From the NCBI RefSeq assembly GCF_003991155.1, contig NZ_CP031293.1: DNA of 64,000 nucleotides. The stretch is one strand, 5' to 3'. The position numbers were made by a program, and so were the translations under genes. This DNA is from Escherichia coli. Its GTDB lineage: Bacteria > Pseudomonadota > Gammaproteobacteria > Enterobacterales > Enterobacteriaceae. The notes under the pieces were generated by a model, which made no database searches, was not told the DNA's origin, and was given only the letters and a program-made list of their open reading frames with translations. Shown in pieces: positions 21,467 to 22,392 of the stretch. The first letter of the stretch is position 1. Every line of letters begins with the position of its first letter.

Positions 21467-22392
21467 AAATCCACCCCGTAAATCCAGTCTGTGTTTGTCA
21501 GGTCGAGTTTTGGTTTGCTAGCTGTCACGCCTGCCTGTTGCTTGTTACGGTTGATTTCGAGTTGGGTCCACTTGTCGCGGAGTTTGGCCGGACTTAGCAC
21601 GTTACCGGACCAGAAGTTGTCCTGGCATGCCCAGCGGAACAGCACGCACATGTCGCGGTGGTTACGTCCGTCACGTTCACGCATCAGGCGGATATCGTTA
21701 GCCCACCCTGCAAAATTCGGTTTTCTGGCTGATGGCGCGATGGTCTTCACCATGTCAAACATCCACTCTGCGGCGGTCAGGTCTTCTGCTGTCCCCCACC
21801 TGCTGCCGCTCTGAATTGCAGCATCTGGTTTCTCCACAGGAAGGTCGTTTTCTGGCTGGTCAGAGGATTCGCCAGAATTCTCGGACGAAAAAGGTTTTAT
21901 ATTGTCTTTTGTTAGTTTGTCTTTTGTGTTTACCTGATTCGGGTAAACGTCTTTACCTGATTTGGGTAAACTTTTTTTACCTGATTCAGGTAAATTTACC
22001 TCTTTCAGGTAAACTTTATTTTTCTTACCTGATTCGGGTAATGTTGACCATTCACTGACCACATTATTAATGCCGATATTCCGCCCGCTCTGAATAAAAA
22101 TCCCACGCTTTACCAGAACACTTTTTGCAGCAGAACACTTGTGCGGCAATATCCCGGTTAACTCGGAAAGTTGCTCGTTGCTCACCCAATCCATTTTTTT
22201 ATTAAAGCCATATGTTTTGCGCATGACAGCCAGGAAGACCAGAAGCTGGTGCTGTGTTAATCCGGCCAGCATCACAGCTTCCAGCAACTCATTTGCAATG
22301 CGCGTATAACCATCATCGAGATCTGCCACGCGCCGCTCCTTTTGTGCCGCATCCGGCACTGGAAAATTGAATATCTCAGCAGTGTTTGCCAT
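21463..22392 (-). CDS. O: Replication initiator O (start uncertain; track ORF extends to 22482)
   Basis: Lambda O-like N-terminus from MANTAEIFNF...; contains the iteron array inside the coding sequence; C-terminus lambda O-like. Confidence 0.88.
   Translation of the reverse strand: MANTAEIFNFPVPDAAQKERRVADLDDGYTRIANELLEAVMLAGLTQHQLLVFLAVMRKTYGFNKKMDWVSNEQLSELTGILPHKCSAAKSVLVKRGIFIQSGRNIGINNVVSEWSTLPESGKKNKVYLKEVNLPESGKKSLPKSGKDVYPNQVNTKDKLTKDNIKPFSSENSGESSDQPENDLPVEKPDAAIQSGSRWGTAEDLTAAEWMFDMVKTIAPSARKPNFAGWANDIRLMRERDGRNHRDMCVLFRWACQDNFWSGNVLSPAKLRDKWTQLEINRNKQQAGVTASKPKLDLTNTDWIYGVDL
21929..22042. repeat. ori: Replication origin iterons (five ~19-bp direct repeats, consensus TTACCTGATTCGGGTAAAC) inside O
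   Basis: Repeats start at 21929, 21952, 21976, 21995, 22024; each contains inverted half-sites TTACC/GGTAA; location inside O as for ori-lambda. Confidence 0.7.

Follow-up and report, generated by a model that had tools for sequence, protein, structure and literature searches.

The window, i.e. the whole 64-kb stretch of Escherichia coli DNA that was analysed, contains within gene O of a lambdoid prophage an array of five palindromic repeats (iterons), which is very probably the replication origin of the lambda-type O-P module in this DLP12-family argU prophage, and of a specificity type unlike that of lambda. The array is a new, or at least unannotated, example of a well-known origin type, and as such represents ordinary biology. 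The prophage is located at the tRNA-Arg (argU) site beside fimZ, with the gene order int ... cI / cro (YdaS-like) / YdaT-like / O / P / ren / emrE / ybcK, and thus shows the DLP12 layout, here with intact replication genes; open reading frames for an integrase, for recombination, immunity, Q and lysis functions, and large open reading frames of the head region are also present in the window. The features of the replication region are listed in the following, with coordinates in the window.

20765-21466, minus strand: gene P, lambda-type DnaB helicase loader (Pfam Phage_lambda_P); the start of P overlaps the stop codon of O.
21463-22392, minus strand: gene O, replication initiator, 309 aa (ORF list, Pfam and alignment with 434 O), from the lambda-homologous ATG at 22392.
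22048-22392, minus strand: predicted N-terminal winged-helix DNA-binding domain of O, aa 1-115 (AlphaFold2, Foldseek and Pfam).
22025-22041, minus strand: iteron 1, TTACCCGAATCAGGTAA (coding strand), a promoter-proximal extra copy that is missing from four-iteron origins.
21996-22012, minus strand: iteron 2, TTACCTGAAAGAGGTAA, at frame offset 2, translated VYLKEVN.
21977-21993, minus strand: iteron 3, TTACCTGAATCAGGTAA, the nearest to a perfect palindrome, one base off its own reverse complement.
21953-21969, minus strand: iteron 4, TTACCCAAATCAGGTAA (pattern scan).
21930-21946, minus strand: iteron 5, TTACCCGAATCAGGTAA, at frame offset 2, translated VYPNQVN, adjoining the A+T-rich block.
21889-21929, minus strand: presumed DNA-unwinding element, A+T-rich and strand-asymmetric, 41 bp, starting ACACAAAAGACAAAC (coding strand).
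21869-21888, no strand assigned: imperfect dyad centred on GAATTC, TCGTCCGAGAATTCTGGCGA, kept in 434/lambda, to the right of the A+T-rich block.
21463-21868, minus strand: C-terminal part of O, presumed P-interaction domain, lambda/434-type by its identity to 434 O.

O is a member of Pfam family Phage_rep_O (PF04492; E=1.2e-34) over residues 21-115 as counted from the ATG at 22392 (the match comprises residues 22-116 of the 310-aa query, which was translated from 22395). The open frame of O also includes an ATG further upstream, at 22482, and the resulting 339-aa form is the one used in public annotations; the O orthologues of phages GZ7 and SEN34 begin with MANTAE. The product of P (233 aa) is a member of Phage_lambda_P (PF06992; E=3.7e-61).

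The minimal origin of lambda comprises four 19-bp iterons and a 49-bp A-T-rich, strand-asymmetric region (PMC4488673). The window contains the corresponding parts. Within O, five iterons with internal dyad symmetry (at least four, of about 19 bp each, would be expected) separate the coding sequence of the DNA-binding N-domain from that of the C-domain; the last of them is followed at once by an A+T-rich stretch with strand asymmetry, and the initiator, which has a Phage_rep_O N-domain of the winged-helix type, is followed by a gene for a helicase loader. The order of Phage_rep_O N-domain, iterons, A+T-rich asymmetric block, lambda-like C-domain and P matches the anatomy of ori-lambda. The iterons occupy nucleotides 352-463 of O, right behind the N-domain and its conserved ...SEW terminus; this is the ori position expected by the sequence-only reading (an earlier annotation made without database searches), and the array sits where sites are annotated in 434 (gpO iterons), phi80 (gp15 sites) and P22 gene 18 (rep_origin). 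The block at 21889-21929 has a G+C content of 24%, and T makes up 59% of its plus strand. ACACAAAAGAC, or a variant of it with one or two mismatches, follows the last iteron in eight of nine distinct O alleles, with phi80 as the exception, and the ACACAAAAGAC block is common to the window, 434, P22, HK97, GZ7 and SEN34. For the GAATTC dyad, a putative role in the origin is suggested by its conservation with lambda.

The five repeats, which had earlier been described as irregularly spaced at 19 to 29 bp, were resolved by the pattern scan as 17-bp palindromes of the type TTACC-N7-GGTAA at 21930-22041, with measured start-to-start distances of 23, 24, 19 and 29 bp and with perfect half-site pairs in all five iterons. 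Iteron 1 lies inside a 30-nt insertion relative to 434 O, as seen in the alignment. When the window was scanned for TTACCTNNTTYNGGTAA with one mismatch allowed, no site beyond the five was found within the 64 kb (six matches at five places, with one copy also matching on the minus strand); the chance expectation is 0.02 matches per window, and none of 100 dinucleotide-preserving shuffles reached the observed count. Within the prophage part (1-31000), Tandem Repeats Finder detected no further array with at least two copies and a period of more than 11 bp. An Rfam scan of positions 20000-25000 detected no oop-like RNA, and its only matches were sub-threshold ones to mir-26 (E=0.13) and rliD (E=0.31), both on the array, which were rejected as palindrome artefacts with scores far below the gathering scores. 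The array folded as single-stranded DNA gave z=-8.7; this is a trivial consequence of repeated palindromes and was not counted as evidence.

In lambda, an O dimer is bound on each iteron via the N-terminal part of O, and the C-terminal part binds P (PMC6022878); at ori-lambda, the O complex distorts the adjacent A+T-rich region, and the C-terminal part of O recruits P-DnaB (PMC6022878, PMC4488673). By analogy, O dimers would bind to the array, one per iteron (five on 21930-22041), through the N-terminal winged-helix domain, and the resulting nucleoprotein complex would bend the DNA so as to strain and open the A+T-rich region at 21889-21929. The lambda-like C-terminal domain of O would then recruit P-DnaB, with DnaB delivered by P (20765-21466), and the origin would fire. 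The open-access literature yielded no report of this O binding these repeats or of replication starting there.

The sequence-only reading had further proposed that the iteron word is not that of lambda, which would imply a different DNA-binding specificity of O, even though the C-terminus of O and P are lambda-like; at the level of sequence, each part of this proposal is borne out. The lambda pattern had no match in the window O gene even with two mismatches allowed, TTACC-N7-GGTAA is absent from 434 O, and the two arrays are 43% identical, which is background. The N-domain of O has 62% DNA and 53% protein identity to that of 434, and its predicted recognition helix 28%. The similarity to lambda/434 rises abruptly to 95% exactly where the A+T-rich block begins; between this point and the stop codon of O, the identity to 434 O is 95.1% for DNA and 93.5% for protein, and P is identical to 434 P at 227 of its 233 residues (97%). 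The window O is not a member of the lambda specificity group, which comprises 434, 21 and Stx phages and combines TCCCTC-N5-GAGGGA with a lambda-type N-domain.

For a wider comparison, eight other distinct O alleles were taken from annotated phage records. The nine alleles, including that of the window, carry seven distinct iteron words, with a palindrome array at the same place in each; the words of the other alleles are as follows.

lambda/434: TCCCTC-N5-GAGGGA
phi80: TTCCCG-N4-CGGGAA
P22: TTACC-N5-GGTAA
HK97, Stx2 phage 1717 and SEN34: TTAGC-N7-GCTAA
mEpX1: GTCTC-N7-GAGAC
PhiR12_2*: GTCAC-N7-GTGAC
Klebsiella phage GZ7: TTACC-N7-GGTAA

The pattern scan recovers the annotated sites of 434 (four 'ori lambda iterons for gpO binding' in the phage record) and of phi80 within 1 bp, and falls inside the rep_origin of P22, which shows that known origins are detected in this way. 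No phage was found in which such repeats are coding sequence and the origin lies at another place, a case that would have spoken against an origin function of the array. The type of iteron tracks the N-domain of O in the nine alleles. Klebsiella phage GZ7 (OP114732) has five TTACC-N7-GGTAA iterons at O coordinates 352, 381, 400, 424 and 447, with spacing equal to that in the window, and an O N-domain 83.5% identical to that of the window; its O C-domain, however, is unrelated (25% protein identity), and a DnaC/DnaI-type helicase loader takes the place of lambda P. Conversely, 434 and PhiR12_2* have a C-domain in common with the window (92-95%) but other N-domains and iterons. These combinations indicate that N-domain and iterons form one unit, and C-domain and loader another; the joint between the two units lies at the conserved ACACAAAAGAC A+T-rich block. 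That the iterons inside O of lambdoid phages are type-specific and matched to the N-domain of O, as an exchangeable module, has been known since the lambda/phi80/82 hybrids, according to the passages of PMC6022878 and PMC4488673 in which these are cited. The same principle has been restated for P22 and phage L, with a different set of iterons bound by each of the O/gp18 relatives inside the gene that encodes it (PMC8022706).

An AlphaFold2 model of O residues 1-119, which rests on an alignment of nine sequences, predicts a winged helix-turn-helix with a mean pLDDT of 77 (block means of 78-95 over residues 31-110). The modelled N-domain has helices at residues 72-79 and 83-95 and a beta hairpin (wing) at 99-108, and includes the following feature.

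O residues 83-95, minus strand: predicted recognition helix, PHKCSAAKSVLVK (AlphaFold2 model).

The best matches of the model in a Foldseek search against PDB were the winged-helix domains of CRP, MarR, IclR and LysR; these matches are weak (E from 0.007) and generic for winged helices, with no E-value below 0.001, and a sequence search of PDB with O gave no match at E up to 1. Over the nine sequences, the first turn of the predicted recognition helix correlates with the iteron word, and we hypothesize that it tracks it: LPHK (window and GZ7) and APTK (P22) pair with TTACC, HHTH pairs with TTAGC in both SEN34 and HK97 despite N-domains that are only 38% identical, and SRQN and PRQK pair with GTCTC and GTCAC, respectively.

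Three other explanations of the array were weighed. A tandem repeat at the level of protein, in which the copies would encode a flexible Ser/Gly/Lys linker joining the domains of O and would have no function as DNA, can hardly be right and has already been largely refuted by the frame analysis. The region does encode the low-complexity stretch LPESGKK...LPESGKK.LPKSGK that had been pointed out in the sequence-only reading, and the corresponding part of lambda O has been called a flexible linker (PMC6022878); the description of this stretch as a repetitive linker does not extend, however, to one repeated peptide in a single frame, as the iterons 1-5 have frame offsets of 0, 2, 0, 0 and 2 and are translated in two readings as LPESGKK, VYLKEVN, LPESGKK, LPKSGKD and VYPNQVN. 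With two of the five copies in another frame, the repeat is not kept as a peptide; furthermore, each copy is internally palindromic, for which a peptide repeat has no need, and the palindrome array is kept in nine alleles while the encoded peptides differ completely. The variation also avoids the half-sites: among 79 standard-length arrays (78 IMG/VR loci and the window's own), one of 50 half-site columns (a singleton) versus 13 of 69 centre and spacer columns are polymorphic, with Fisher p=0.004 as a rough, indicative value for related sequences. The underlying set of 80 IMG/VR loci, with 17 distinct array versions, comprises near-identical relatives only (N-domain 97-98% identical to that of the window) and is usable for polymorphism, not for distant co-variation. 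Since the copies are read in two frames and the variation avoids the half-sites, the constraint is on the DNA, i.e. on the TTACC/GGTAA half-sites. Improbable, too, is an origin-shaped relic in a prophage as cryptic as the DLP12 of strain K-12, with an origin no longer used here. The context is that of a DLP12-family prophage at argU with emrE and ybcK, and decay does occur, as in two of the 80 related loci the array is altered in length (by -23 and +43 nt), which puts O out of frame; against this stand the intact O (309 aa) and P (233 aa), the perfect half-site pairs in all five iterons, the presence of this very array in two of the 80 IMG/VR loci and of nearly the same array, together with the same N-domain, in all 80, the identity of 97.4-98.7% (DNA) of the O allele to isolated phages, and the integrase, recombination, immunity, Q, lysis and large head-region open reading frames in the window.

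The third explanation accepts an origin and concerns its specificity, in that the window O might cross-recognise iterons of the P22 type or of the HK97/SEN34 type and differ in specificity from lambda only; we consider this unlikely. The half-sites are indeed those of P22 and one symmetric base away from those of HK97/SEN34, the TTAGC pattern with two mismatches matches all iterons of the window, and the N-domain is 58-60% identical to those of P22 and SEN34. However, the 2-bp difference in spacer from P22 shifts the half-sites by about one fifth of a helical turn, the starts of the helix differ (LPHK here versus APTK in P22 and HHTH in SEN34/HK97), the identity of the recognition helix is 50% to P22, 28% to SEN34 and 39% to HK97, and all ten half-sites show the C/G difference that sets them apart from the TTAGC type.

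For the array as an origin with a specificity type of its own, the prevalence in E. coli is high: the N-domain with the array (506 nt) was found in 2296 of 5426 complete E. coli genomes (approximately 42%; at least 80% coverage of the 506-nt query), mostly at 95-99% identity, and equivalent queries found the lambda/434 type in 1316 and the HK97 type in 395 of the complete genomes. Among phages, 335 records had a match to the O N-domain, and the O allele is represented in 16 coliphage records, of which 15 are full-length at 97.4-98.7% DNA identity, including Perceval, 4A7, Lambda_4C10, Turner, 1W, 3W and PhiR34_1; the sixteenth, D2, has 96.1% identity over 79% of the query. In Perceval and PhiR34_1, this allele is the sole annotated O-P module in the 4-kb stretches examined. 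In all three phage records inspected, the iterons were without annotation. The word TTACC-N7-GGTAA was not found in the open-access literature; the phage 82 origin papers of 1979-1981, which possibly describe it, are outside this scope. Phage 82 has the nin-Q region in common with DLP12, and its origin has five repeats; the 16 close matches from the phage collection included no record of the phage 82 origin. Phages with this allele are not mentioned in PMC12315714 (Genome Research 2025).

More tentatively, and as a possibility with somewhat less than even odds, the array may represent an experimentally uncharacterised O/ori class, the commonest of the three types counted in complete E. coli genomes, in which the specificity switch would lie in the first turn of the helix (LPHK, HHTH, APTK) and the promoter-proximal fifth copy would have been added with a regulatory function, in the manner of the Stx iterons 1 and 1'. 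If so, the natural alleles would provide a graded series for the change of initiator-iteron specificity without loss of function, with one symmetric base pair as the step from HK97/SEN34 and 2 bp of spacer as the step from P22. For basic understanding, the gain from the array is small; the principle is already known. Annotation of an origin type that is found in approximately 42% of complete E. coli genomes would improve the annotation of prophages and origins, and iteron words paired with recognition-helix motifs would make a cheap and testable specificity map for a family without a solved structure, as judged from the sequence search of PDB. Palindromic iterons have been reported to trigger defence systems such as OLD (bioRxiv 10.64898/2026.07.10.737580), and, speculatively, iteron diversity could bear on which phages are sensed by defence systems.

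In comparison with known systems, the array shares with ori-lambda/434 the location of the iterons inside O, right after the Phage_rep_O N-domain, the palindromes of roughly 17-19 bp, and the ACACAAAAGAC A+T-rich block followed by the GAATTC dyad; it differs in the iteron word (TTACC-N7-GGTAA here, TCCCTC-N5-GAGGGA there) and in the number of copies (five versus four). The last four iterons are spaced at 19-24-23 bp, versus 20-24-23 bp in lambda/434, P22, SEN34, HK97 and PhiR12_2*.

With P22 gene 18, the array has in common the TTACC/GGTAA half-sites, a rep_origin annotated over the homologous array, the ACACAAAAGAC block and an N-domain of 58% identity; in P22, however, the spacer is 5 bp instead of 7 bp, there are four copies, of which the outer ones are degenerate, the C-domain is another one, and the partner is the DnaB-type helicase gp12. 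The P22 pattern had no match in the window O gene with up to two mismatches, and by word and N-domain the window O does not fit the specificity group of P22 gene 18, in which TTACC-N5-GGTAA goes with an N-domain of the P22 type. HK97, Stx2 phage 1717 and SEN34 share the geometry of 5 + 7 + 5 bp, with half-sites that are one symmetric base pair off (TTAGC/GCTAA); these alleles differ in having four copies and a recognition helix that starts with HHTH instead of LPHK, and in their N-domains (43% identity for HK97 and 60% for SEN34).

For the fifth iteron, the Stx phages P27 and 933W provide a parallel in layout, with extra promoter-proximal iterons upstream of the four lambda-equivalent ones and with O lengthened in frame. 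Only four of their six lambda-word iterons were strongly bound in vitro, and the extra ones were needed for plasmid establishment (PMC7466680). In P27 and 933W, the iterons are of the lambda word, bound by a lambda-type O, and the extra copies are two, whereas the prophage O gene in the window carries another word and one extra copy.

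The iteron array inside O is closed by the block ACACAAAAGAC(A), which lies directly after the last iteron (window 21919-21929). The same block, or a variant with one or two mismatches, also closes the iteron arrays of the compared loci L001, L004-L008, L010 and L011. The flanks of O alleles that keep the block are otherwise unrelated on one or the other side, and similarity between alleles switches exactly at it; the block is probably both part of the unwinding element and a homology patch for module exchange.

Copy number within the array was altered in two IMG/VR relatives, L025 and L069:
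1549-1644 (L025), four iterons, a loss of 23 nt
1549-1710 (L069), seven iterons, a gain of 43 nt, with iterons 2-3 duplicated
The iteron spacings are not divisible by three, so each change throws O out of frame and truncates it, to 169 aa in L025 and 149 aa in L069; inter-iteron recombination is therefore one route to initiator inactivation. As single-stranded DNA the window's array folds strongly (z=-8.7) because its palindromes are repeated. The only Rfam matches in the 20-25 kb region, to mir-26 (a microRNA precursor) and Listeria rliD, fall on the array (21927-22044); both are sub-threshold, and these identities were rejected as artefacts of the repeated palindromes.

Two starts were considered for O:
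22482, minus strand, ATG of the public annotation (PGAP and phage records), giving 339 aa
22392, minus strand, lambda-homologous ATG, preceded by GGGAGGAATT
The upstream start is joined to the YdaT-like gene by an ATGA overlap, and the O orthologues of Klebsiella phage GZ7 and Salmonella phage SEN34 start at the position equivalent to the 22392 ATG (MANTAE...). The 30-residue extension (22393-22482, minus strand) is probably an over-call, or else reflects an alternative, coupled start.

The immunity region (22479-24124) is of the Rac/YdaS-YdaT type and not of the lambda type:
23369-24124, plus strand, S24/HTH repressor
23100-23330, minus strand, 'cro', YdaS_toxin family
22479-23018, minus strand, YdaT_toxin-family protein in the cII position, labelled 'cII' in phage records

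A two-gene pair of low G+C content (35%, compared with 50% for the window) separates the Q antiterminator gene from the lysis genes and lies on the strand opposite to theirs (12307-14698, plus strand). This is the position at which Stx phages carry stx, and the two genes may form a moron or defence cassette. One gene is a homologue of the NA37-family nucleoid-associated proteins; its ORF ends at 13170 in the window (287 aa), compared with 391 aa annotated for the CP029747 copy, which suggests a frameshift in the window's copy. The 404-aa product of the other gene had no Pfam match.

The gene layout of the prophage is that of DLP12 (18283-20768 and 29368-30623). Directly after P come a ren-like gene, the SMR efflux-pump gene emrE, and ybcK, which encodes a serine recombinase; the integrase adjoins tRNA-Arg(tct) (30547-30623), beside fimZ. 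In effect, the prophage is K-12 DLP12 in a form whose replication genes are intact.
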